Source of the DNA: Phaeacidiphilus oryzae TH49 | GTDB lineage: Bacteria; Actinomycetota; Actinomycetes; Streptomycetales; Streptomycetaceae | NCBI RefSeq assembly: GCF_000744815.1 | Contig: NZ_JQMQ01000005.1 | Location: 4,729,801 to 4,793,800 of the forward strand | Length of the DNA: 64,000 nucleotides | Direction: 5' to 3' | In this document: positions 16,811 to 38,326 of the stretch, in pieces | How positions within the stretch are numbered: position 1 is the first letter of the stretch | Layout: each line of letters begins with the position of its first letter | Translations under genes and position numbers: made by a program | Notes under the pieces: generated by a model | What the model saw: only the letters and a program-made list of their open reading frames with translations | What the model was told of the DNA's origin: nothing | The model's database searches: none

Positions 16811-17299
16811 TCACCGCCGGATCCGGGTGCCGACGTGCCGGGCGACGACCTCGCCGGTGTCGTCCCGGCGGAACTCGGTGCGGAAGGTCAGCACCGCCAT
16901 CCGCCCGGAGCGGCCGGCCTTCTCCACCGCCTCCACCAGCTCGGTCCGCGAGCGCAGCACGTCGCCGAGCCGCAGTTCGGGCGCCGCCTCCGGGTACTCG
17001 AAGCGGTCGCCGCCGTTGAGCCAGCCCTGCCCGTACGCCAGTGCGGCGGGGCACTCGGGCGGCTCGTCCACGAAACCGCAGAGCAGCGTCGGCGGGACGG
17101 CCAGGTCGTCGGGGACGGCCCCCGGCGCGGGCGCGGCGGCGGTCCGCCCGTCCACCGCGATCGCGGTGAGGAAGTCGCCGAGATGCCGGTGCTCGACGCG
17201 GTCCACGCGCTCCCGGCCCTGCCAGCCGACGGCCGCGGCGAGCCGCGCCATCTCCTCGGATACCTGCGGTGCCGCCGCACCCGGAGTCGCTGAAGTCAC
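16811..17299 (-). CDS. MaoC N-terminal-like hot-dog protein (HadA-like non-catalytic dehydratase partner)
   Basis: About 160-aa hot-dog fold protein immediately upstream of, and 2 nt from, the MaoC dehydratase gene. The pair arrangement resembles HadA/HadB. GTG start at 17299. Confidence 0.7.
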   Translation of the reverse strand: MTSATPGAAAPQVSEEMARLAAAVGWQGRERVDRVEHRHLGDFLTAIAVDGRTAAAPAPGAVPDDLAVPPTLLCGFVDEPPECPAALAYGQGWLNGGDRFEYPEAAPELRLGDVLRSRTELVEAVEKAGRSGRMAVLTFRTEFRRDDTGEVVARHVGTRIRR

Positions 17300-17479: not shown

Positions 17480-18253
17480 ATGCACATGGACAAACCGACC
17501 ACCCACACCCCCTGCTGGGTGGAGCTCGGCACCTCCGACCCGGAGGCGGCCAAGCGGTTCTACGCCGCCGTCTTCGGCTGGCGCGCGGCCACCGACCCCC
17601 GCCCCGAGGCGGGCGGCTACACCATCCTCCATCTCGGCGAGAGCACCGCCGACGCCCCCGTGGCCGCGCTGATGGGGCTGATGGGCGAGGGCCAGCCGAC
17701 GGCCTGGTCGATCGCCTTCTCGGTGACCGACGCGGACGCCGCCGTCGCCGCCGTCCGCAAGGCCGGCGGCAGCCTGATCGTGGACCCGATGGACGTCTTC
17801 GAGGAGGGCCGCTACGCGGTCGTCGCCGACCCCTCCGGCGCCGCCTTCGCGCTCTGGCAGCCGCGCGCCTTCGACGGCTTCACCTCGTACGAGGCGAACG
17901 GCGGGATGTGCTGGGCCGAGCTGCACACCGACGACACCGCCGGCGCCGAGCGCTTCTACCCGGCGGTCTTCGGCTGGACCGTCCGGCGGTCGGTCGACTT
18001 CTACGCCATGTTCTCCCTCGGCGAGGCCGACTTCGGCGGCCTGGCCGGGATCGACGAGGAGCACACCCCGGGCGCCCGCCCCCACTGGCTGCCGTACTTC
18101 GGTGTGGAGGACGTGGACGCCGCTGTGGAGCGGGCCGCGGCGGCCGGCGGCCGGGCGGTGATGGGCCCGGTTCAGGTCCCGGACGGCCCCTACATCGCGG
18201 TGGTGAGCGATCCGCAGGGGGCCGTCTTCGGCCTGCTGCGAGGCGCCGCCTGA
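17480..18253 (+). CDS. VOC (glyoxalase/bleomycin-resistance/dioxygenase) family protein, two tandem VOC domains
   Basis: Repeated half-domains (PCWVELGTSDPEAAKRFYAAVFGW... / MCWAELHTDDTAGAERFYPAVFGW...). GAGGAG RBS precedes the ATG at 17480. Paralogous to the gene at 44668-45465. Confidence 0.8.
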   Translation: MHMDKPTTHTPCWVELGTSDPEAAKRFYAAVFGWRAATDPRPEAGGYTILHLGESTADAPVAALMGLMGEGQPTAWSIAFSVTDADAAVAAVRKAGGSLIVDPMDVFEEGRYAVVADPSGAAFALWQPRAFDGFTSYEANGGMCWAELHTDDTAGAERFYPAVFGWTVRRSVDFYAMFSLGEADFGGLAGIDEEHTPGARPHWLPYFGVEDVDAAVERAAAAGGRAVMGPVQVPDGPYIAVVSDPQGAVFGLLRGAA

Positions 18254-18279
18254 CGGCACGCCGGTCCCGGGCCGGCCGG

Positions 18280-19494
18280 TCAGTAGCGCGGTCGCACGAC
18301 CCCCGGGGACGGCATCCGGTCCAGGGTGGTCACCCGGACCACCGTCCCCGGCCGGGGTGCGTGCACCACCAGCCCGTCGCCGATGTACATCCCCACATGG
18401 GTCGCCCCGGGGAAGTAGACGACCAGGTCCCCGGGGCGCAGCGGCTGCCCCGCCGGCACCCGGGGCAGGCCCGCGAACTGCGCCTGGCTGGTGCGCGGGA
18501 TCCGCACCCCGGCCGCCGCCCAGGCCTGCGAGGTCAGGCCCGAGCAGTCGTATCCGGAGGGCGAGGTGCCGCCCCAGACGTAGGGGGTGCCGATGTGCGC
18601 CAGCGCGAAGAGGACCGCCCGCAGGGCCTTGCCGTCCGGCTGGAGGTCTGGACCGGCGGCCCGGCCGGGCAGCGCCCGCAGCAGGCCGGAGGCCGCGCTG
18701 CCGTCCCCGAAGCGGGCGGCGATCCCGGCCAGCAGGGCGTCCCGGCGGGCGGTGAGCGCGGGGCGGGAGGCCGCGACGGCGTCCCGGCGCCGCTCGGCCG
18801 CGGTGGCCGCGGCGGCGGCCCGGGCCGCCTGCGCGGCGCGCAGTGCGGCGACCCGGCGGGCCTCCTGGTAGGCCACGGTGTAGGCGTGCCGGGCCTGGTA
18901 CTCGGCGCTCTGCCGGTCGGCCAGCCGCTGGGCTCCGCCGCGCCCGGTGAGGAGGTCGGTGAGCCCGGCCAGCGGGCCGTCGGCGTACTGGTAGCCGGCC
19001 AGCCGGGCCATCGCGTCGCCCATCAGCTCGCGGCGGACCCGCTGCCAGGCGGCCTTGGCGGCCAGCTGCCCGGCCTGCGCGCGCAGCGCCGAGGCCTGCG
19101 CGGAGAGGGCGTCCACCCGGGCCTGCAGACCGGAGAGTTGACGGAACGTCCGGTCCAGGGCGTCCAGGGTGGACGGGGCCGGCGCGTTCCCGCGTGCGGC
19201 CACCGGCCCGGGGCCGGTGCCGACCGCCGCCGAGTCGGGGTCGGCGTCGGCGTCAGGCCCGGGGCCGGGGGCCGGCGTCGCGGCACCCGCCAGGGGCCGG
19301 GCAGCCGACCCGGCGGCAGGGGCGAGGAGGAGGTTGGCACCCGGCAGCGCGGCCGGCCCGAGTGCCGCGAGGGGGCCCGTACCCGGGCGGGTGCCCGGCC
19401 GGGCGCCCGGACCCGGCGCTCCCGCGACCGCCGTCACCGCCGCCGCCCGCTCGGCGCCGAAGGCGACCCCCGCCGCCCCGCGGAGCCCGCGCAC
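18280..19494 (-). CDS. NlpC/P60 family peptidoglycan endopeptidase with N-terminal coiled-coil (RipA-like)
   Basis: C-terminal NlpC/P60 domain (HIGTPYVWGGTSPSGYDCSGLTSQAWAAAGVRIPRTSQAQF...GDLVVYF...HVGMYIG) carrying the Cys-His catalytic residues. GTG at 19494 is the first start in frame, but the N-terminus has no signal peptide. Confidence 0.75.
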   Translation of the reverse strand: MRGLRGAAGVAFGAERAAAVTAVAGAPGPGARPGTRPGTGPLAALGPAALPGANLLLAPAAGSAARPLAGAATPAPGPGPDADADPDSAAVGTGPGPVAARGNAPAPSTLDALDRTFRQLSGLQARVDALSAQASALRAQAGQLAAKAAWQRVRRELMGDAMARLAGYQYADGPLAGLTDLLTGRGGAQRLADRQSAEYQARHAYTVAYQEARRVAALRAAQAARAAAAATAAERRRDAVAASRPALTARRDALLAGIAARFGDGSAASGLLRALPGRAAGPDLQPDGKALRAVLFALAHIGTPYVWGGTSPSGYDCSGLTSQAWAAAGVRIPRTSQAQFAGLPRVPAGQPLRPGDLVVYFPGATHVGMYIGDGLVVHAPRPGTVVRVTTLDRMPSPGVVRPRY

Positions 19495-19815
19495 GCGGCG
19501 GCGGCCACCGCCGCGGCCAGCGCCGCCGTCAGTCCGCTCCGTCCGGTCCGCACAGGTACCCGTACCAACTGACCCATGGGGTCAGGCTGCTCCGGGCGGC
19601 CGTCCCGGGCCGCGGAACACGCCTGGGCGGGACCTCCACGTAGCCCGGACGGCCGAGGACTGAGGAGGTCGAATCAGGGTACGTGCAGTCTGCAATCAAC
19701 CGTCTCGAGAGGACTGACGCGCTGTCATATCGACGCAAGGTGTACGCCCCGACGGCGTTCTGCTGCCCCGTCAGCCCTCTCCGACCCGACCCCCCAGGAA
19801 GGACCGGACCCCCAG

Positions 19816-21267
19816 ATGACGTCCGCAGCTCCGCCGTCGCCCAGCCAACCCGCGCCTGCCACCGGTAGACCCGCCGACCCCCGCCGCTTCCTCCGCCGGC
19901 TCACCCTGGCCACCGGCGGCGGGATGTTCATCGACGGCTTCGTCTTCGCCTCGGTGGCCTCGGCGCTCGCCGGCAGCGCGATGTCCCGGCAGATCGGCGT
20001 CACCCTCACCTGGTCGACGCTGATCTCCTCGTCCACCCTGATCGGCACCTTCTTCGGCGGGCTCTTCCTCGGCTATCTGACCGACCGCCTCGGCCGCCGC
20101 CCGATGTTCACCATCGACCTGTCGGTCTTCCTCGCCTGCGCGCTGCTCATGCTGGCGGTGGACGCCCCCTGGCAGGTGATGGTGCTGGGCCTGGTGATGG
20201 GCCTCGCCGTCGGCGCCGACTACTCGATCGGCTCCCCGCTGCTCGCCGAGTTCTCCCCGCGCGCCAAACGCGGCAACTACCTCGGCGTCCTGGAGATCCT
20301 CTGGAACGTCGGGTACGTGGTGGCCTACCTGGTCGGTTACGTGATCAACAGCAACTGGCCGAACGCCTGGCACATCACCCTCGCGGCCAGCGCCGTACCG
20401 GCGGTGGCCTGCCTGGTGCTGCGGCACGGACTGCCCGAGTCGCCGCGCTGGCTGATGTCCAAGGGCCGCCGGGAGGACGCGGAGCGGGTCCTCGCCGAGT
20501 CGCTCGCCGTCCGCTCCGGCGCCGGCTCCGCGGACCCGGCGAGTGCCGCGATCGCCCGCGACCTCGCCGTGGAGGCCGCCGACATCCAGGCCGAGGAGGC
20601 CGCGCCCACCCGGTACGCGATGCTCTTCTCCCGGGACTACCTGCTGCGGACGGTCTTCGCGTCCACCTTCTGGATCTGCATCGTCCTGCCGTACTTCGCG
20701 CTGACCTTCTTCCAGCCGACCGTCCTCACCGCGATAGGCCTGGGCAGCTCCGCGCTGGCCGGCGCGCTCCTCGGCACGGTCATCGCGCTGGTCGGCGCCT
20801 GCACCGGATGGTGGCTGGTGGACCGGGTCGGCCGCCGGACCATCCTGGTCTGGCCGATGTTCGGCTGCGCGCTGGCGCTCTTCCTGGTGGCCCTGGGGCA
20901 TCTGCTGCCGGTCTGGCTGGGGACCGTCTGCTTCTTCGGCTACCTCTTCTCCTACGGGATCATGAGCATCCTGCCGGGGATCTATCCGGAGGAGGTCTTC
21001 CCGACCCCGATCCGGACCTCCGGCGTCGGCTTCGCCTCGGCCGCCAGCCGGATCGGCGCCGCCATCGGCACCTTCCTGCTGCCGCTCTCCCTCGACCATC
21101 TCGGCCTCGGCTGGTCGATGTTCATCATGGGCGTGGTCTCGCTGGTCGGCGGGGTCACCGCGATCGCCTGGGCGCCGGAGACCAACGGCAGGCTGCTGAG
21201 CGACACCGGCCACCGGCGGAACCGCGGCCGCGAGGCGGTCGTCCACGCCGCGGCGACCACCGGCTAG
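19816..21267 (+). CDS. MFS transporter (sugar porter / metabolite:H+ symporter-like)
   Basis: 12 transmembrane segments, GYLTDRLGRRP (MFS motif A) and PESPRWL (sugar-transporter motif). RBS GGAAGGACCGGA precedes the ATG at 19816. Confidence 0.85.
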   Translation: MTSAAPPSPSQPAPATGRPADPRRFLRRLTLATGGGMFIDGFVFASVASALAGSAMSRQIGVTLTWSTLISSSTLIGTFFGGLFLGYLTDRLGRRPMFTIDLSVFLACALLMLAVDAPWQVMVLGLVMGLAVGADYSIGSPLLAEFSPRAKRGNYLGVLEILWNVGYVVAYLVGYVINSNWPNAWHITLAASAVPAVACLVLRHGLPESPRWLMSKGRREDAERVLAESLAVRSGAGSADPASAAIARDLAVEAADIQAEEAAPTRYAMLFSRDYLLRTVFASTFWICIVLPYFALTFFQPTVLTAIGLGSSALAGALLGTVIALVGACTGWWLVDRVGRRTILVWPMFGCALALFLVALGHLLPVWLGTVCFFGYLFSYGIMSILPGIYPEEVFPTPIRTSGVGFASAASRIGAAIGTFLLPLSLDHLGLGWSMFIMGVVSLVGGVTAIAWAPETNGRLLSDTGHRRNRGREAVVHAAATTG

Positions 21268-21462
21268 CGCGACGTCCCCCGACGCGACGGGGGCGCTGTC
21301 CGTCACCGGGACCCGGCGGAGGATTTCGTCGCGACTTCCCATCCCTGTCCTGCGTGTGTTATTGACCTGTACACGCGCTGCGGTGAGGATGTGTCCATAT
21401 GACGTGGATGCGACAGTTGAGAGTCCCGACATCCCAGCGCCCCCAGCGCCGCAGGCGCGCCC

Positions 21463-23988
21463 ATGGCACCCCCGGAGACGGGGGAGGCGGCCGTGGCTGA
21501 GTTCTCCCGGCGCCGTTTCCTCAAGCGCGCCGCGGGCACCGGCGCCGCGGCGGCCGCCGCGGCCCTGCTGCCGCCCAACCTCCGGCAGGCGGTCGCCGCC
21601 GAGCCGGCCCGCCGACTCGGCTCCCTCGACGAGATCGAGCACGTGGTGATCCTGATGCAGGAGAACCGCTCGTTCGACCACTACTTCGGCACCATGCCGG
21701 GGGTCCGCGGGTTCGACGACCCGAACGCGGTCCAGCTCTCCACCGGCCGCTCGGTCTTCTACCAGCCCGACCCGGAGAACCCGGACGGCTACCTCCTCCC
21801 GTTCCACCTCGACACCCGCACCACCAGCGCGCAGGCGATCCCCTCGACCAGCCACGCCTGGTCGGTCCAGCACTCCGCGGTGAACGGCGGACGGATGGAC
21901 AACTGGGTCCCCGCCCACCGCAAGGCGGACGGCGAGGCCCGCGGCCCCTACACGATGGGCTACTACGAGCGGGACGACATCCCCTTCCACTGGGCGCTGG
22001 CCGAGGCCTTCACCCTCTGCGACGGCTACCACTGCTCCCTGCTCGGCCCGACCTGGCCCAACCGGCTCTACCACTGGACCGGCACCATCGACCCGAGCGG
22101 CACCATGGGCGGCCCGGTGACCAGCAACACCATCCCGTCCCCGTTCCGCTGGACCACCTATCCCGAGCGGCTGACCGCGGCCGGCGTCTCCTGGCACGTC
22201 TACCAGCAGGAGGACGACTACGGCTGCAACCCGCTCGAGTTCTTCGCCAACTTCCAGAACGCCGAGCCCGGTTCGGCCCTCCACGAGCACGGCCTGACCA
22301 TCGGCCCGGCCGACCGCTTCGAGCAGGACGCCCTCAACGGCCGCCTGCCCACCGTCTCCTGGATCATTCCGACCTCCGGCCAGTCCGAGCACCCGGACTA
22401 CCTGCCGGCCTCCGGCGCCGACTTCCTGGCCCGGCAGCTGGACGCCGTGGCCGCCAACCGCGACCTGTGGCGGAAGACCGTCTTCATCCTCAACTACGAC
22501 GAGAACGACGGCCTCTTCGACCACGTGGTCCCGCCACTGCCGCCGGCCGGCACCCCGGACGAGTTCGTCGGCGGCCTGCCGATCGGCGCCGGGGTGCGGG
22601 TGCCGTGCGTCATCGTCTCGCCGTGGACCCGGGGCGGGCTGGTCGCCACCGAGAACTTCGACCACACCTCGGTGCTGCGCTTCCTGGAAAGGCTGACCGG
22701 CGTCCAGGAGACCAACATCAGCGCCTGGCGCCGCTCCACCTTCGGCGACCTCACCTCGGCCTTCGGCCTCCCGGGCGGCGGTTCGGACGGCTCCTTCCCG
22801 CAACTCCCGGAGACCAAGGGCGAGCTGCGGCTGGCCGAGTACGAGGTGGCGACACTGCCGCCGGCCACCTTCCCCGGCGCCGACCAGACGCCGCCGCACC
22901 AGGGCAGCGTGAGCAGCCGCAGTGCGAGCCCCTCCGCGATTCCGTCCGCCCCCGAGCGCTACCCCGGCAGCAGCCACTGGTTCCGCAACCGGATCGCCGA
23001 GGACCCGACGGCCCGTCAGAAGAAGGCCACCGAGTTCCCGGGACCGGCCGTCCGGGTCCCCACCGCCGCCCCCGCGGGCGCCGGCCGGCTGGCCTACGCG
23101 GCCTGCCCGGCGGGGAGCATCCTCGCCATGGTCGACACGGCCACCAGGACCCTGGTCGCCGCCTCCTACAGCGGAGTCACCAACCCCTACGGCGTCGCCG
23201 CCCTGCCGGACGGCGGCAAGCTCTACATCGCCAACTCGGGGGAGAGCGACGTCGCGGTCTACGACACCGCCAAGCGGGCGGTGACCTCCTCCGTCACGGT
23301 GGGCCTCTACCCCCACGGCGTCGCCGTGTCGCCGGACGGCGGGCTGGTCTATGTGGCCAACACCGGCTCGGACACCGGGCCCGGCTCCTCGAACAGCCTC
23401 TCCGTCATCGACACCGGCTCCGACGAGGTCGCGGACACCTGGCGGGTCGGCACCTCCCCGCACACCGTCGCCCCCCTCCCGGACGGCCGTTCGCTCCTCG
23501 TCACCTGCTACGACGGCCTGGTCGTGGTGGACGCCGAGAGCGGCCGGGTGCGCGGCCGGCTGCCCGACCAGTCCCGGGCCGTCGGCGTCTCCGTCCACCC
23601 CGACGGCCGCCGCGCCTACGTGGCCAACCCCTCCCGGAACACCGTCTCGGTGATCGACCTGGCGGCCGGCCGGACGGTCTCCCGTATCCCCGTCGGCCGC
23701 ACCCCGTGGCGGACGGCGGTGACCGGGGACGGCAGCCGGGTGCTGGTCACCAACTCCGGCGAGGACACGGTCACCGCGCTGGACGCGGCCACCGGCCGGG
23801 TCCTGGGCCGGGCGGCCGTCCACCACATCCCGACCGGCCTCTCCATCGACCCGGTGACCGGGCTCGCCTGGGTCGCCACCAACGTCTCCAGCACCCTCGA
23901 CGTCATCGACCCGGCGACCATGCGGGTGCTGTCCAGCACCCTGATCGCGCTCTCCGCCGAACCGGCCACCATCGCCTTCGCGCCCTGA
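21463..23988 (+). CDS. Tat-secreted phospholipase C (phosphoesterase family, PlcN-like) fused to a C-terminal YVTN-type beta-propeller repeat region
   Basis: Tat signal SRRRFLKRAAG; phosphoesterase core (VVILMQENRSFDHYFGT...NYDENDG). The C-terminal 330 aa or so carry roughly 40-residue YVTN-like repeats (YGVAALPDGGKLYIANSGESDVAVYD..., GVAVSPDGGLVYVANTGSD..., SVHPDGRRAYVANPSRNTVSVID...). Confidence 0.85.
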   Translation: MAPPETGEAAVAEFSRRRFLKRAAGTGAAAAAAALLPPNLRQAVAAEPARRLGSLDEIEHVVILMQENRSFDHYFGTMPGVRGFDDPNAVQLSTGRSVFYQPDPENPDGYLLPFHLDTRTTSAQAIPSTSHAWSVQHSAVNGGRMDNWVPAHRKADGEARGPYTMGYYERDDIPFHWALAEAFTLCDGYHCSLLGPTWPNRLYHWTGTIDPSGTMGGPVTSNTIPSPFRWTTYPERLTAAGVSWHVYQQEDDYGCNPLEFFANFQNAEPGSALHEHGLTIGPADRFEQDALNGRLPTVSWIIPTSGQSEHPDYLPASGADFLARQLDAVAANRDLWRKTVFILNYDENDGLFDHVVPPLPPAGTPDEFVGGLPIGAGVRVPCVIVSPWTRGGLVATENFDHTSVLRFLERLTGVQETNISAWRRSTFGDLTSAFGLPGGGSDGSFPQLPETKGELRLAEYEVATLPPATFPGADQTPPHQGSVSSRSASPSAIPSAPERYPGSSHWFRNRIAEDPTARQKKATEFPGPAVRVPTAAPAGAGRLAYAACPAGSILAMVDTATRTLVAASYSGVTNPYGVAALPDGGKLYIANSGESDVAVYDTAKRAVTSSVTVGLYPHGVAVSPDGGLVYVANTGSDTGPGSSNSLSVIDTGSDEVADTWRVGTSPHTVAPLPDGRSLLVTCYDGLVVVDAESGRVRGRLPDQSRAVGVSVHPDGRRAYVANPSRNTVSVIDLAAGRTVSRIPVGRTPWRTAVTGDGSRVLVTNSGEDTVTALDAATGRVLGRAAVHHIPTGLSIDPVTGLAWVATNVSSTLDVIDPATMRVLSSTLIALSAEPATIAFAP

Positions 23989-23998
23989 CCGGCCCGGC

Positions 23999-24745
23999 TC
24001 AGTCCCGCAGCAGGCCGCCCAGCACCCCGCCCAGGCCGCCGGCCTCGACCGCCTCCCGCTCGCCACCGAGCGGGAGGTACGGCACCAGGGCGTGCGCCAG
24101 GTTCGGCAGCGGCATGGACTGGAGCCAGATGTCGCCGGGCCCGGTGAGCGCGACCAGGTAGTAGCCGTCGCCGCCGAAGAGGCGGTTGGTCACGCCCGGC
24201 ACCCGGGTCATGGTGAACCGCACCCGCTCCTCGAACATCCCGATGTGCCCCGGGTGGACGAGCATCGTCCGCCCGGCCGGGAGCTGGTAGTGGCACAGCT
24301 CTCCGGAGAGCTCGATCCAGGCCCGGCCGCTGCCCTCCAGCCGCTGGAGGAGGAAGCCGTCCCCGCCCCACAGCCCCCCGCGGAAGCTCTGCTGCAGCCC
24401 GACCGTCGGCGTCACCCCGGGGGTGCCGGCCAGCCAGCCGTGCCGGTGCACCAGGTAGCCGCGGTCCCGGTCGACGTCGACCGGCACGATGTGGCCGGGC
24501 ACCTTCGAGGCGAAGGCGACCATCCCCGGGCCGCCCTCGGGCTGGTAGCGGGTGAGGAACAGCCCCCCGCCGCCGGCCAGCCGCTTCAGCGTCCGCAGCA
24601 GGCCGCCGCCAGCCTGGGCGGACTGGCTCATCGTCATGTTCTCGGACATCCAGGAGAGCTCGCCGTGCGGCGTGACCAGGCTCTCCCCGACGTTCATGGT
24701 GACTTCGAGCACCGGCATGGTGCTCCCCTTGACCACGGCTTCCAT
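23999..24745 (-). CDS. AIM24 family protein (TIGR00266 / DUF124)
   Basis: N-terminus PVLEVTMNVGESLVTPHGELSWMSENMTMS matches the AIM24-family N-terminal pattern, and the protein is Gly-rich and mostly beta in character. Confidence 0.75.
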   Translation of the reverse strand: MEAVVKGSTMPVLEVTMNVGESLVTPHGELSWMSENMTMSQSAQAGGGLLRTLKRLAGGGGLFLTRYQPEGGPGMVAFASKVPGHIVPVDVDRDRGYLVHRHGWLAGTPGVTPTVGLQQSFRGGLWGGDGFLLQRLEGSGRAWIELSGELCHYQLPAGRTMLVHPGHIGMFEERVRFTMTRVPGVTNRLFGGDGYYLVALTGPGDIWLQSMPLPNLAHALVPYLPLGGEREAVEAGGLGGVLGGLLRD

Positions 24746-34141: not shown

Positions 34142-35230
34142 ATGTCCGATGCCGTGGTCGCCGCGGACTGGAGCGCCGGCGAAGGCGCCACCGGCCCCGA
34201 CGGCTACGCCCGGCTGCTCGCCGAGGTCGCGGCGACCGGCCGCCGCCTCACCCGCGGGGAACTCGACGAGCATCGCGCCCGTGGCGAGGCCGCCGCCGGC
34301 TCCGGTCGCTCGCTCCGTGAACTCGTCGGCCGCTACCTGGCCGCGACCAGGGCCGCCTGGCCGGAGAACGCCCCCTCGGCGGACCCAGTGCTGGCCGCGA
34401 TGGCCATGGCCGTGGACGCCTTCGCCGACGGCTACGAGCGCGCTCAGCGGATCGCCGTCCGCCAGGAGGAGAACGCCCGCCGGGAGTTCATCGACGACCT
34501 GCTGTACGGCCGCGGGGACCTCGGCCGGCTCGCCCAGCGCGCCGAGCGCTTCGGCCTCCGCCTCGCCCACGCGTACGTCGTGGCCGTGGCGGCGGCCGCG
34601 GACCTCGCCGCGTACGACGCCGTGCACCCCGTCACGCGACAGGTGGAACTCGCCCTGCGCGGCCGGTTCGGCACCCGCAGCATCCTCCTCACCACCAAGG
34701 ACGCCCGGCTCGTCTGCATCGCCCCCGCCGATCACACCGACGTGCTCGACCACTTCGCCGCGCTGGTCCGCGGCGCGGACCGCACGGCGCGCGTCGCCGT
34801 CGGCCGCCCGCACCCAGGCGCGGGCGGCGTCGTCCACTCGTACGAGGAGGCGCTCAACGCCCTCGACCTGGCCGACCGCCTCGACCTGCCCAGCCCTCTG
34901 CTGCACGCCGCCGACCTGCTGGTCTACCCCGTGCTGACCCGCGACCGGGACGCCATGGCCGACCTGGTGCGGCACGCCCTCGGCCCGCTGGAGCGGGCCC
35001 GCGGCGGAGCCGGGCCGCTGCTGAGGACGCTCAGCGTCTACTTCGACAGCGGCTGCGTCTCGGCGGAGGCGGCCCGCAGGCTCGCACTCAGCGTCCGCGC
35101 CCTCACCTACCGCCTGGCCCGAGTCCGGGACCTGACCGGCGCCGACCCGGCCGACCCGGCCCACCGCTACACCCTCCAGACCGCCGTCATCGGCGCCCGC
35201 CTACTGGACTGGCCCGCCCGGGCGCTGTGA
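34142..35230 (+). CDS. PucR/CdaR family transcriptional regulator
   Basis: C-terminal PucR-type HTH (RTLSVYFDSGCVSAEAARRLALSVRALTYRLARVRDLTGADPADP). Transcribed divergently from the NfeD-flotillin operon. Start could be GTG 34127, GTG 34136 or ATG 34142. Confidence 0.75.
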   Translation: MSDAVVAADWSAGEGATGPDGYARLLAEVAATGRRLTRGELDEHRARGEAAAGSGRSLRELVGRYLAATRAAWPENAPSADPVLAAMAMAVDAFADGYERAQRIAVRQEENARREFIDDLLYGRGDLGRLAQRAERFGLRLAHAYVVAVAAAADLAAYDAVHPVTRQVELALRGRFGTRSILLTTKDARLVCIAPADHTDVLDHFAALVRGADRTARVAVGRPHPGAGGVVHSYEEALNALDLADRLDLPSPLLHAADLLVYPVLTRDRDAMADLVRHALGPLERARGGAGPLLRTLSVYFDSGCVSAEAARRLALSVRALTYRLARVRDLTGADPADPAHRYTLQTAVIGARLLDWPARAL

Positions 35231-35258
35231 CGGCTCGGCGGGGGCCGGGAGGTCCACG

Positions 35259-35798
35259 GTGATCATCAGCAGAGGCGGCCGTCGTGCCGCGATCCGAACA
35301 GACGAGTCTTCTGCCGTCTACGTCGGCACACATGTCGCTCGCTGCGAGCGCGCCGGCCCGGCCGAGCCGGTACGTGCGGTGCGGGCGGTCGTGGAACTGA
35401 GCCGAGCGCTCGGCGGGATGACGATGCGGGCCCTTCTCGGGGCCGAGTTCTCACCGGATCCATCGGGGTCGGCGACTGAGTTCGAGGTCCCGTTCGATGA
35501 GCCTCTGGGGCTCGGCGCGGTTGCCCATGCCCACTGCCGCAGCGAGCTCGGACGCTCGCTCGTGGCTGGGTTGCCAGGCGACTTCGCCGCTGCGGTGCTC
35601 GACGGACTGGCAGGAGAGGCCGCGGCCAGGACGTTGCCGAGGGGGCTGCTGCGGATCGACCGCGCGGGCTTCGACGAGGCAGGCTCCTCTGAGATGGCCT
35701 TCAAGCTCGCTGGGGGCCTGTTGCGGTGTGTCGTGGAGGCCCTGCTGCATGGCGACGATCCGCTCGTGGCGGCCCAGGCCGTCGTGAGCGGATGGTGA
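35259..35798 (+). CDS. Hypothetical protein with atypical (lower GC3) codon usage
   Basis: 179-aa ORF with protein-like composition but many A/T-ending codons (tca, gat, cca, act, gtt, ttg, tct, tgt) compared with its neighbours. Lies between the PucR gene and the tRNA-Lys 3' end. Confidence 0.3.
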   Translation: MIISRGGRRAAIRTDESSAVYVGTHVARCERAGPAEPVRAVRAVVELSRALGGMTMRALLGAEFSPDPSGSATEFEVPFDEPLGLGAVAHAHCRSELGRSLVAGLPGDFAAAVLDGLAGEAAARTLPRGLLRIDRAGFDEAGSSEMAFKLAGGLLRCVVEALLHGDDPLVAAQAVVSGW

Positions 35799-36015
35799 CG
35801 TGGGAGTCAGGCCGAAGAATAGGCAGCGCCGATGGCAGCCGGGGGCCCCCGGTGAACAGCCTCACCAAGGCGTCCAGATGGCCGATGCCGTGTAGTCGTG
35901 TGTGCGCGGACGCCCCACGCAGGGGGAGTGAGCCTGCGCACTGGGACCTGCCTCCGGCGAGCTGATCGGACGCGTGCGGTTCTTGTGCAGGCGTTCCCGC
36001 TCTGCTCCCACCGCA

Positions 36016-36064
36016 AATCAAAAACGGCCTGGGGCCTCCCGTCGAAACGCGAGGCCCCAGGCCG
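36016..36064 (-). terminator. Intrinsic terminator downstream of tRNA-Lys
   Basis: Minus strand has a 13-bp perfect stem GGCCTGGGGCCTC/GAGGCCCCAGGCC with loop gcgtttcgacgg, then GTTTTTGATTTG. It starts 22 nt after the tRNA 3' end. Confidence 0.75.
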
Positions 36065-36085
36065 TTGTACTGCATGTCTTGCTTG

Positions 36086-36159
36086 TGCGCCGCCAGGGAC
36101 TCGAACCCCGGACCCGCTGATTAAGAGTCAGCTGCTCTAACCAACTGAGCTAGCGGCGC
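36086..36159 (-). tRNA. tRNA-Lys: tRNA-Lys (anticodon CTT)
   Basis: Minus strand GCGCCGCTAGCTCAGTTGGTTAGAGCAGCTGACTCTTAATCAGCGGGTCCGGGGTTCGAGTCCCTGGCGGCGCA folds as a cloverleaf: 7-bp acceptor stem, TAGCTCAGTTGGTTAGAGC D-arm, anticodon loop CTCTTAA, GGTTCGAGTCC T-arm. CCA is not encoded. Confidence 0.9.
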
Positions 36160-36267
36160 GGGCGTCGTCGCCTCGGGCGAGCTGGTCGCCGTCGCGTTGA
36201 CGGAAGTAATCATAGCGGACCTTCGCCGGTGCTCCGACCACCGTCGGCCACCGTCCGGCCGCGCGGT

Positions 36268-37077
36268 TCAGCGGCTGGAGGCGGCCGCCGCGGTGCTGGT
36301 GGTCTGGTCGGTCTCGACCAGGCGGCGGACGGCGTCCGCGATCTCGTCCCGGGCGACCAGCAGCTGGAGCCAGATCCGCGGCTCCCGGCCGTCCCAGCCC
36401 GGGTAGAGGCGGGCGCTGAGGCAGCCGGCGGCGGCCAGCGCGGCCAGCCGCCGGTCGTGGACGGAAGCGCCCTGAACAGCGGGCGCGCCGGGGGGCACGC
36501 CGCCCCCGCCGCGGGCCCCGCCGACCGCCCGTACCGCCGCGTCCACCTCGGCCGCCAGCCGCCGGTGGGCGTCCGCCGACTCGGCGTAGTACCCGGTGCG
36601 CGGGAAGAGGCCCAGCACCCGCCGCTGCTCGACCCGCAGCAGCCCCCGCGAGACCAGCGCGTCCAGATACGGCCGGTCCGCGTTTCTGGCCAGCCGGCGC
36701 AGCGCCGCCTGCAGCGGCAGCCCGCGCGGGTTCTCGGCGGCCGCCTCGGCCACCCAGGCCAGCGCCGCGTCAAGGCCCGGCTCCCCGCGCGGTGCCGGCG
36801 AGGCGAGCCCGACCCGTCCGCCGCCGACCCGGACCGACCGGTTCAGCTGCAGCTCCGCCAGTACCGCCCCGGCCAGCGCGTACCGGAAGAACTGCGGCTG
36901 CCGTACCCGCAGGCTGCGCGGGTCGAGGCAGAGGAGCAGCAGCTCCTCGGGCAGCGGGAGCCGGTACGCGGCACGCGAATCGAAGCCGGTTTCTGGGGTC
37001 GTCGCTCCGTCCACCCGACCACGTTCGCACGGCCGAGCGGGCATCCGGCAGGCTCGCGGGGACGACCGGCCGCTCAT
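36268..37077 (-). CDS. GPP34/GOLPH3 family protein
   Basis: LPLPEELLLLCLDPRSLRVRQPQFFRYALAGAVLAELQL matches the GPP34-family N-terminal signature. The longer ORF to 38034 is antisense to the peptidase gene, so the start is taken at ATG 37077; ATG 37044 is an alternative. Confidence 0.7.
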   Translation of the reverse strand: MSGRSSPRACRMPARPCERGRVDGATTPETGFDSRAAYRLPLPEELLLLCLDPRSLRVRQPQFFRYALAGAVLAELQLNRSVRVGGGRVGLASPAPRGEPGLDAALAWVAEAAAENPRGLPLQAALRRLARNADRPYLDALVSRGLLRVEQRRVLGLFPRTGYYAESADAHRRLAAEVDAAVRAVGGARGGGGVPPGAPAVQGASVHDRRLAALAAAGCLSARLYPGWDGREPRIWLQLLVARDEIADAVRRLVETDQTTSTAAAASSR

Positions 37078-37152: not shown

Positions 37153-38326
37153 ATGGCATCCAGGGCGGGGCGGCTGAACGCGCTGACGGACGTCCCCGGG
37201 CTGAGGGTGGGGCACGCCCAGCGGATCGGGGAGGGCTGGCTCTCCGGCACGACGGTCGTCCTCGCCCCACCCGGCGGCGCGGTCGCCGCGGTGGACGTCC
37301 GCGGCGGCGGTCCGGGCACCCGCGAGACCGACGCCCTCGATCCGCGCAACCTCGTCCAGCGGGTCGAGGCGGTGGTGCTGACCGGCGGCAGCGCCTTCGG
37401 CCTGGCCGCCGCGGACGGGGTGATGGCCTGGCTGGAGGAGCGCGAGCGGGGCTTCCCGGTCGGGCCCGGCCGGGTCGTCCCGGTCGTCCCCGCGGCGGCG
37501 CTCTTCGACCTCGGCCGCGGCGGGGACTGGCGGGCCCGCCCGGGCGCCGCCCTCGGGCGCACGGCGGCCGAGGCCGCCTGGGCGGCGGGGGAGGGGGTGC
37601 CGGTGCCGCAGGGCGCGGTCGGCGCGGGCACCGGCGCGCACACCGAGGGCGGGCTCAAGGGCGGGATAGGCACGGCGAGCGCGGTGGTCCCGCTGCCGGC
37701 CGCCGAGGGGCGGGAGGCGTGCGAGGTGACCGTCGCCGCCCTGGTCGCGCTGAACGCGGCCGGCTCCCCGGTGGACCCGGCCACCGGGCTGCCGTACGGA
37801 GCCTTCGCGGAGGTGGAGGGCGAGTTCGGCCGGCTGGGCGGGCTGGCCGGCGCGGAGGCGCGCGGCCCGCTGCCGGAGGCGGTACGCCGGCGGGCGGCCG
37901 AGCGGCTGGCGGAGGCGGCGGGCGCCCCGGCCCCGGCAGCCCGGCCTCCGGCAGCCCGGCCCCGGCGGCACGGCCTCCGGCGGCACGGCGGCCGCCGCCC
38001 AGCCGCTCAACACCACCCTCGCCGTCGTCGCCACCGACGCCGAGCTGACCCGCCCTCAACTCCACAAGCTGGCCGGCACCGCCCATGACGGCCTGGCCCG
38101 CGCGGTCCGCCCGGTGCATCTCCTCAACGACGGGGACACCGTCTTCACCCTCGGCACCGGCACCGGCACCGCCCCGGCGCCGGCCGACGCCCTCGCGGTG
38201 AACGCGATCCTCGCCGCCGGCGCGGACGCGGTCACCCGCGCGGTGGTGCACGCCGTGTTGAGCGCGGAGTCGGTCCGCACCCCGGCCCGCTCCTTCCCCT
38301 GCTACCGCGAGCTGTACCTGGAGTGA
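37153..38326 (+). CDS. P1 family peptidase (DmpA/S58-type aminopeptidase) with an apparent frameshift inside a short tandem repeat at about 37930-37990
   Basis: N-terminal 260 aa or so (NALTDVPGLRVGHAQR...VDVRGGGPGTRETDAL...VLTGGSAFGLAAADGVMAWLEE) read in frame 1. The conserved C-terminal region (NTTLAVVATDAELTRPQLHKLAGTAHDGLARAVRPVHLLNDGDTVFTLGTG) reads in frame 2 (ORF 38114-38326). The join lies within ccggcagcccggcct ccggcagcccggccc cggcggcacggcct ccggcggcacggcggcc. Confidence 0.7.

Follow-up and report, generated by a model that had tools for sequence, protein, structure and literature searches.

A one-base frame break puts the export signal of an NlpC/P60 endopeptidase gene out of frame with its catalytic domain in the PacBio-only genome of Phaeacidiphilus oryzae TH49

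We analyzed a stretch of 64,000 nucleotides from Phaeacidiphilus (formerly Streptacidiphilus) oryzae TH49 (the 6.86-Mb main contig, NZ_JQMQ01000005.1, positions 4,729,801 to 4,793,800; hereafter the window, to which all coordinates refer unless another contig is named) and observed that a minus-strand gene for an NlpC/P60 cell-wall hydrolase is interrupted by a frame break near its 5′ end. As deposited, the export signal is not in frame with the catalytic domain; it is in frame after the addition of one G, and it is in frame in the orthologues. The true gene would be a single open reading frame (ORF) of ~432 codons beginning at ATG 19577. Its product would be a secreted RipC/CwlO-like peptidoglycan endopeptidase precursor, having a Sec-type signal, an Ala/Gly/Pro linker, a helical region and a C-terminal NlpC/P60 domain. 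We propose that a G of the G4 or G5 run within 19479–19467 (a C on the plus strand) is missing from the deposited sequence, which would put the signal out of frame, and that the annotation pipeline would then have fallen back on GTG 19494, the first start in frame. Most likely this G was dropped from the consensus of an assembly made by PacBio RS and HGAP alone, and the organism itself has no mutation here. As a frame break in a gene of a familiar kind, the finding is ordinary, and this type of error has already been documented.

The catalytic part of the gene lies in a minus-strand ORF (frame B) that extends from GTG 19494 to 18280, where its stop codon occupies 18280–18282. It encodes 404 amino acids that are 100% identical to NCBI WP_051940465.1 (‘C40 family peptidase [Phaeacidiphilus oryzae]’). 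Upstream, this frame is closed by a TGA at 19584–19582, and no ATG, GTG or TTG follows until GTG 19494, which is the first usable start. This publicly annotated start codon (19492–19494) overlaps the codon for Cys29 of the other frame, and no Shine-Dalgarno-like sequence is visible within 25 nt upstream of it. The annotated N-terminus reads MRGLRGAAGVAFGAER... and has no hydrophobic segment at its start; the best 15-residue Kyte-Doolittle mean of the N-terminal part is 1.37, reached at residue 42.

Another start codon, ATG 19577 (19575–19577), is located 83 nt upstream of GTG 19494. This distance equals 27 codons plus 2 nt, and the two codons are hence in different frames. It is the sole ATG, GTG or TTG of its frame (frame A) past the upstream stop, and we take it as the probable true start. 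Frame A encodes 47 amino acids, MGQLVRVPVRTGRSGLTAALAAAVAAAACAGSAGRRGSPSAPSGRRR, and is closed by a TGA at 19436–19434, where its out-of-frame continuation ends. The segment 19577–19480 has the appearance of a signal peptide, with an n-region MGQLVRVPVRTGR and an h-region SGLTAALAAAVAAAACAGSA. Three Arg are found among its first 15 residues, and its best 15-residue Kyte-Doolittle mean is 2.11, from residue 16. A shift of 2 nt (equivalently −1) leads from frame A to frame B. The first-pass annotation had pointed to both a signal-less N-terminus beginning at the first available GTG and a signal-type peptide encoded from ATG 19577 in another frame; our analysis reproduced the coordinates, the frames and the peptide, as well as the low hydrophobicity of the annotated N-terminus. 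It had also placed the end of the 47-codon frame inside a G/C-rich stretch. The length of the frame is correct, but the G-rich stretch, gcggggcggcggggg, lies at 19481–19467 and the TGA comes 31 nt later, so that the stretch is the likely site of the frame swap rather than the end of frame A.

The orthologues indicate which arrangement is the older one. The closest of them, P0002, is 75% identical and comes from a soil metagenome of the Joint Genome Institute (JGI), on contig L081 (JGI 3300036805, Ga0376681_0019970). The gene order of L081 is that of the window: a major facilitator superfamily (MFS; sugar) transporter, the P60 hydrolase and a glyoxalase. In L081, the frame is open for 579 codons from position 1706, and an ATG at 1892 is followed by MRLFVGARSERPVAAAVLAAAVAAAVTATSVGAAAGAP..., in frame with the P60 domain. 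When the L081 protein was used as a tblastn query, its residues 5–35 matched frame A of the window and the remainder matched frame B. The signal-peptide segments are 68% identical at the DNA level, and both loci have the ATG context agcctg(a/g)ccccATG and an h-region of the form CTGGCCGC.GCGGTGGCCGC.GC. At the protein level, the frame A signal aligns with the L081 signal MRLFVGARSERPVAAAVLAAAVAAAVTATSVG and also with those of P0003 (57% identical) and of the Kitasatospora proteins P0004–P0007, all of which have the signal peptide within the same ORF as the catalytic domain. The ‘GSAG’ of frame A (19488–19477) recurs in P0003 and resembles the ‘TSVG’ of L081. Since L081 and P0003–P0007 all read from the signal into the catalytic domain, the comparison indicates that the ancestral gene had both in one frame and that frame A is the homologue of the orthologous signals. 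The continuous signal-to-domain frame that the first-pass annotation proposed to look for among orthologues is thus present, both in the syntenic L081 locus and in the more distant proteins.

Two of these metagenomic gene calls have peculiarities of their own. JGI called P0002 as a protein of 315 amino acids from a GTG at L081 2498, and at face value it would look like a signal-less orthologue; the conserved ATG and signal peptide imply a protein of 517 amino acids (L081 1892–3445), for which the call is too short. P0003 (478 amino acids; L082 3001–4437) extends ~70 residues past the usual C-terminus (...GVVRPD) in an Arg/Pro-rich tail that overlaps a convergent enoyl-CoA hydratase gene at L082 4250–5026. 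The overlap suggests that, in the metagenome assembly concerned, a stop codon has been lost or an indel is present.

A scan of genome contigs with the 404-residue protein yielded, among the matches listed, Streptomyces and Corynebacterium paralogues of at most 65% identity, with neither a close orthologue nor the source genome in that list, and the NCBI protein cluster of WP_051940465.1 has a single member. Metagenomes were also scanned with the helical region as query, and for exact matches to patterns of the conserved leader; neither scan gave a usable match or an independent sequence of the species.

The passage from frame A to frame B requires one added base or two removed. We observed that one G added to either the G4 run (19479–19476) or the G5 run (19471–19467) yields a single ORF of 432 amino acids, which reads ...AAACAGSAGAAGVAFGAER... 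in the former case and ...GSAGRRGVAFGAER... in the latter. The two variants of the repaired protein contain ...GSAGAAGVAF... and ...GSAGRRGVAF..., and the peptide crossing the junction is AGAAGVAFGAER or AGRRGVAFGAER. The position of the switch was assessed by a codon-usage model trained on 9609 codons from confidently coding segments of the window, with every switch point scored. The score of the codon path was flat (within 1.6 log units) for switch points 19497–19467, having its maximum in the G4 run (19478–19476) and its runner-up in the G5 run (19469–19467). It was ~9 log units lower for a switch past 19461, because beyond this point frame A needs the rare codon CCT (2 of the 9609 training codons); frame B has there the typical succession GTC GCC TTC GGC GCC GAG. 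These scores localize the frame switch within 19497–19464 with a peak on the G runs, and the two runs (19467–19479) are the likeliest site of a single missing G.

Two other approaches to the site were set aside. A plot of the GC content of third codon positions over 19200–19700 was uninformative, as all three frames exceed 80% in this low-complexity part, and was replaced by the codon-usage path score. Alignment of the DNA to L081 was ambiguous, the G-rich stretch being alignable with a net difference of 3 nt. In the remaining 1.2 kb of the gene no further lesion was found, and the catalytic motifs are present. The L081 frame, the 432-residue repair and the codon-usage switch at the G runs all agree with the first-pass proposal that a 1-nt indel parts the export signal from the catalytic domain.

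The repaired product is recognizable from its domain layout. Following the signal, frame B encodes a low-complexity Ala/Gly/Pro linker (19183–19466), which has PGTRPGTG and GPGPVA in common with L081. Next is an Ala/Arg/Gln/Leu-rich, helix-like middle region (18592–19182) that aligns at high identity with P0002 of L081 and with P0003. The intact catalytic domain (18322–18591) matches Pfam NlpC/P60 PF00877 over amino acids 302–391 (74.7 bits against a cutoff of 23, E = 6.4e-21). All listed orthologues conserve three motifs that are present here, DCSGL, ATHVGMY and VVHAP (with a second His 12 positions after the first); from knowledge of the family, we take them to hold the catalytic Cys, the His and the third polar residue, 12 positions after the His. 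Both the domain and the motifs place the predicted protein in the NlpC/P60 (MEROPS C40) endopeptidases.

Among the PDB chains with NlpC/P60 domains, 37 matched at E ≤1e-5. The best match was 8er5, an unnamed NlpC/P60 domain protein (1.3e-23), and the second was 8idc, the FtsEX-RipC structure (E = 7.8e-22), which makes Mycobacterium tuberculosis RipC the best match with an assigned function. RipC (Rv2190c/MT2245) and CwlO of Bacillus subtilis are secreted endopeptidases that have an N-terminal helical or coiled-coil part and a C-terminal NlpC/P60 domain and are activated by FtsEX. JGI names some of the homologues ‘peptidoglycan DL-endopeptidase CwlO’. The protein shares with RipC and CwlO the C-terminal NlpC/P60 domain and, after repair, a layout of signal, linker, Ala/Arg/Gln-rich helical region and P60 domain. 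Unlike RipC and CwlO, it has a long Pro/Gly/Ala linker that is lineage-specific and varies even with respect to the 75%-identical L081 orthologue, and the alignment with RipC is confined to the catalytic domain. The best NCBIfam model, NF038345 (RipC), scored 102 bits against a cutoff of 425, with model positions 235–355 alone being aligned. Because this score is far under the cutoff and the alignment covers the domain only, the protein, as judged from sequence, is RipC/CwlO-like in layout and not a RipC equivalog. By analogy to RipC and CwlO, the helical region (amino acids ~105–300) presumably forms a coiled coil, as its composition suggests, and the enzyme may depend on FtsEX, as its family would imply.

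The signal had been described as a textbook lipoprotein-type signal. The n-region, the h-region and a Cys are indeed there, but the lipoprotein label is weak and lacks the backing of conservation. In favor of it, frame A has, as in bacterial signals for signal peptidase II, a positively charged n-region, then an Ala-rich h-region and then a Cys (Cys29). Cys29 also matches regular-expression renderings of two permissive patterns, of the G+LPP and PROSITE PS51257 types. Unlike those signals, frame A does not satisfy the strict lipobox [LVI][ASTVI][GAS]C (it reads A-A-A-C, Cys29 being preceded by AAAA), and the Cys is not conserved in the closest orthologue: the L081 signal is devoid of Cys, and a Thr aligns with Cys29. 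Both permissive patterns are matched in one of the six close orthologues, P0007, and P0004 matches the PS51257-type alone. The Kitasatospora orthologues have AxA-type sites for signal peptidase I (ASA-RP, AHA-RP, ARA-QP). Because the strict lipobox is not satisfied, the Cys is not conserved and Kitasatospora has AxA sites, a Sec/signal peptidase I signal appears more likely than lipid modification. We infer that the signal would be cleaved by signal peptidase I and would not be lipid-modified.

As the cause of the indel, the first-pass annotation had offered either a genuine frameshift or pseudogene or a sequencing error in a poly-G/C run; the PacBio-only origin of the genome and a second broken gene in the window favor an error. 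The draft genome of P. oryzae was obtained at JGI from a PacBio 10-kb library on the PacBio RS (PMC4481293). It was assembled by HGAP v2.2.0.p1 with no short-read data, has an N50 of 6,858,095 bp, and is reported to contain 272 pseudogenes against 6526 coding sequences (PMC7601586). When a comparable PacBio assembly of the high-GC Streptomyces leeuwenhoekii was compared with Illumina contigs, 2934 bases needed inserting (Gomez-Escribano et al. 2015, PMC4487206). These were mostly G or C omitted from runs of three or more, causing frameshifts (PMC4487206). The present case is alike in the platform and its era, in a G/C missing from a run of at least three, and in a frameshift seen both by frame analysis and in the amino-acid sequence; it combines a genome sequenced by PacBio RS alone with repair by a single G in a G4 or G5 run. 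It differs in that the omissions in S. leeuwenhoekii were verified by Illumina and occurred at ~1 break per 2.7 kb, a density far higher than in the window.

A second broken gene was found in the window. A seven-state codon hidden Markov model (HMM) run over the whole window revealed one further switch of frame on the same strand that lacks a stop/start junction, in a peptidase S58/P1-family gene (DmpA-like; 37153–38326, plus strand) located 18 kb from the hydrolase. The ORF 37153–38088 matches positions 1–197 of the 307 of Pfam PF03576, and the next frame, 37754–38326, in which no start occurs until 38114, matches positions 206–301. The NCBI coding sequence for this gene (P0121, 311 amino acids) ends in a spurious Arg/Pro-rich tail. 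A GC-rich tandem repeat (37926–37989; 15/14-nt, period 29) contains the switch. One C added to each of its two GGCCCCGG runs (37932–37935 and 37961–37964) gives a protein of 391 amino acids that can be aligned colinearly, up to its last residues, with the orthologue P0122 (80% identical); the gene is otherwise undamaged. A single tandem duplication of 29 nt was rejected as the cause of this break, 29 nt being the wrong phase. An additional HMM junction, at 16817, was also rejected as a frameshift, being a normal two-gene junction of the MaoC type.

A consensus error is favored because two otherwise intact genes among ~52 are broken, both in G/C-run contexts, in an assembly derived from PacBio RS alone. 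Judging from this context of platform, second broken gene and lack of other damage, we consider it likely that the missing G is an omission of the assembly.

Several observations weigh against this assignment. The linker is of low complexity, and the exact site of the break is not fixable by alignment. Runs of G or C are everywhere in the window (516 of 4, 140 of 5 and 26 of 6), so that a break adjoining such a run is weak evidence when taken alone. Two broken genes per 64 kb is much below the S. leeuwenhoekii rate, and that base rate is not transferable quantitatively. The S58 frame is also restored by removing one base, and therefore its break does not prove an error of the omission type. 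Finally, a genuine 1-nt deletion in the strain would give exactly the same sequence picture.

Such a deletion in TH49 is the rival that survives best, and we regard it as possible, if rather unlikely. It would have produced a recent pseudogene, or a signal-less, non-exported and non-functional hydrolase translated from GTG 19494. The deposited sequence itself shows the break, slippage in a G run is a natural route of mutation, 272 pseudogenes are reported for the genome, and a very recent mutation and an error look alike in the data at hand. With the many NlpC/P60 paralogues of Streptomycetaceae, such a strain would tolerate the loss, and many paralogous C40 peptidases are indeed found in related genomes. 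However, the 1.2 kb downstream of the break carries no second lesion and retains the catalytic motifs, the platform is known to drop G and C bases in runs, and the S58 gene, at a distance of 18 kb, has a break in similarly GC-rich surroundings while being otherwise intact. In a free-living actinomycete, one would not usually expect two fresh, otherwise undamaged pseudogenes among ~52 genes. A real deletion would amount to a recent pseudogene of a routine kind, the hydrolase family being redundant.

It could also be argued that the public annotation is right, that translation starts at GTG 19494 without a signal, and that the upstream ORF is a by-product of GC-rich DNA. Such DNA often yields Ala-rich peptides in any frame, and the JGI call for P0002 is shorter still than the annotated protein. 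We scored as signal-like any peptide whose first 15 residues carry at least two net positive charges and which then has an uncharged 15-mer with a Kyte-Doolittle mean of at least 2.0. Only 2 of the 326 first-start ORFs of at least 40 amino acids in the six frames of the window qualified, one of them being frame A. This rarity, together with the homology to the in-frame signal of L081, in which the ATG context is included, indicates that the frame A signal peptide is not a chance product. An N-terminal hydrophobic segment was present in 16 of the 16 homologues inspected (Kyte-Doolittle 1.79–2.47 within the first ~27 residues). The case that the first-pass annotation had named as contrary to its proposal, an orthologue that begins at the position corresponding to 19494 and has no signal, was not encountered among these homologues, P0002 being a short call within a 579-codon open frame. 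We consider it very improbable that the annotated start is correct; the GTG 19494 start is an artefact of the frame break.

The other signal-like ORF of the window, 51898–51314 (minus strand, 194 amino acids, MRSRSPRHNARVNRTRISRIACSSVLAAALTAFAAGCSGTSSSSG...), shows a Ser-rich tether and, in AAGC, a lipobox of the classical form. It gave no Pfam match and is probably a lipoprotein of unassigned function.

The weakest alternative is a recoding bypass, in which a −1 slip of tRNA-Gly on G_GGG (gcG GGG cgg or cgG GGG tcg), or slippage of the transcribing polymerase, would give a minor full-length fraction; we hold it to be extremely improbable. In its favor, −1 is the direction needed from frame A to frame B, and a GGG preceded by G would permit P-site re-pairing to a product identical to the repaired protein. 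Against it, frame A contains no X XXY YYZ heptamer in 19497–19437, no stimulatory structure or conserved element was identified there, and the closest orthologue, L081, is continuous and needs no shift. Known cases of transcriptional slippage or phase variation need runs longer than 4–5 G, and phase variation at these runs is unlikely. There is next to no probability, in our judgement, that the missing G is real and that the hydrolase is exported at a low, tunable level by slippage at 19479–19467; were this so, export of a potentially lethal wall hydrolase would depend on the efficiency of recoding.

Upstream of the gene, in the intergenic region that it shares with the divergently oriented MFS transporter gene, lies a conserved non-coding block (19580–19743, minus strand). 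This leader (19743–19580) is 68% identical to L081 1725–1889 (112 of 164 positions, 1 gap). Farther upstream the identity falls to 47% with many gaps, and the linker downstream also aligns poorly with L081. The GC content of 19578–19750 is 68%, compared with 81% in the gene and 74.2% in the window as a whole. The leader contains CAGTCCT twice and a block GGCGTGTTCCGCG.

Actinomycete wall-hydrolase genes often carry a ydaO/c-di-AMP (cyclic di-AMP) riboswitch. We rejected this assignment for the leader: no Rfam match was obtained for it, either at E ≤1 in 19300–20100 or at gathering thresholds in scans of the window and of five orthologous loci, the fold of the leader was no better than that of shuffles (z = −0.36), and its motifs did not recur in the other 85 loci. 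We also rejected a coding N-terminal extension; the block is in frame in L081, but in the window it is out of frame and has many A/T third positions and a GC content of 68%. A search of the leader for a sigma-70 consensus site found none. From the comparison of the two sequences, the leader is probably promoter, operator and 5′ untranslated region.

Two long ORFs lie opposite real genes in this part of the window, 19771–24066 (minus strand, 1431 amino acids) and 17908–19572 (plus strand, 554 amino acids). They are Arg/Gly/Pro-rich, have no coding signal in the HMM and look like the typical spurious ORFs of a 74% GC genome. Elsewhere, a segment of ~1 kb (35226–36277) has no coding potential in the codon HMM and holds a tRNA-Lys (CTT) gene at 36085–36159 (minus strand), the sole RNA gene of the window.

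For the public records, the frame breaks have direct consequences. WP_051940465.1 is N-terminally wrong: it is without a signal peptide, and its first ~9 residues come from another frame. Because the record lacks the signal, localization predictors would call this wall hydrolase cytoplasmic. The S58/P1 peptidase record (311 amino acids) has a wrong C-terminus. The PacBio-only reference contains frame breaks that the annotation pipeline has turned into plausible coding sequences, outside the 272 declared pseudogenes. This assembly of P. oryzae TH49 is the only type-strain genome found in our searches, and comparative or secretome work on it should begin with re-polishing. The value of the finding is an annotation correction and a quality warning for a reference genome, and is practical rather than conceptual.

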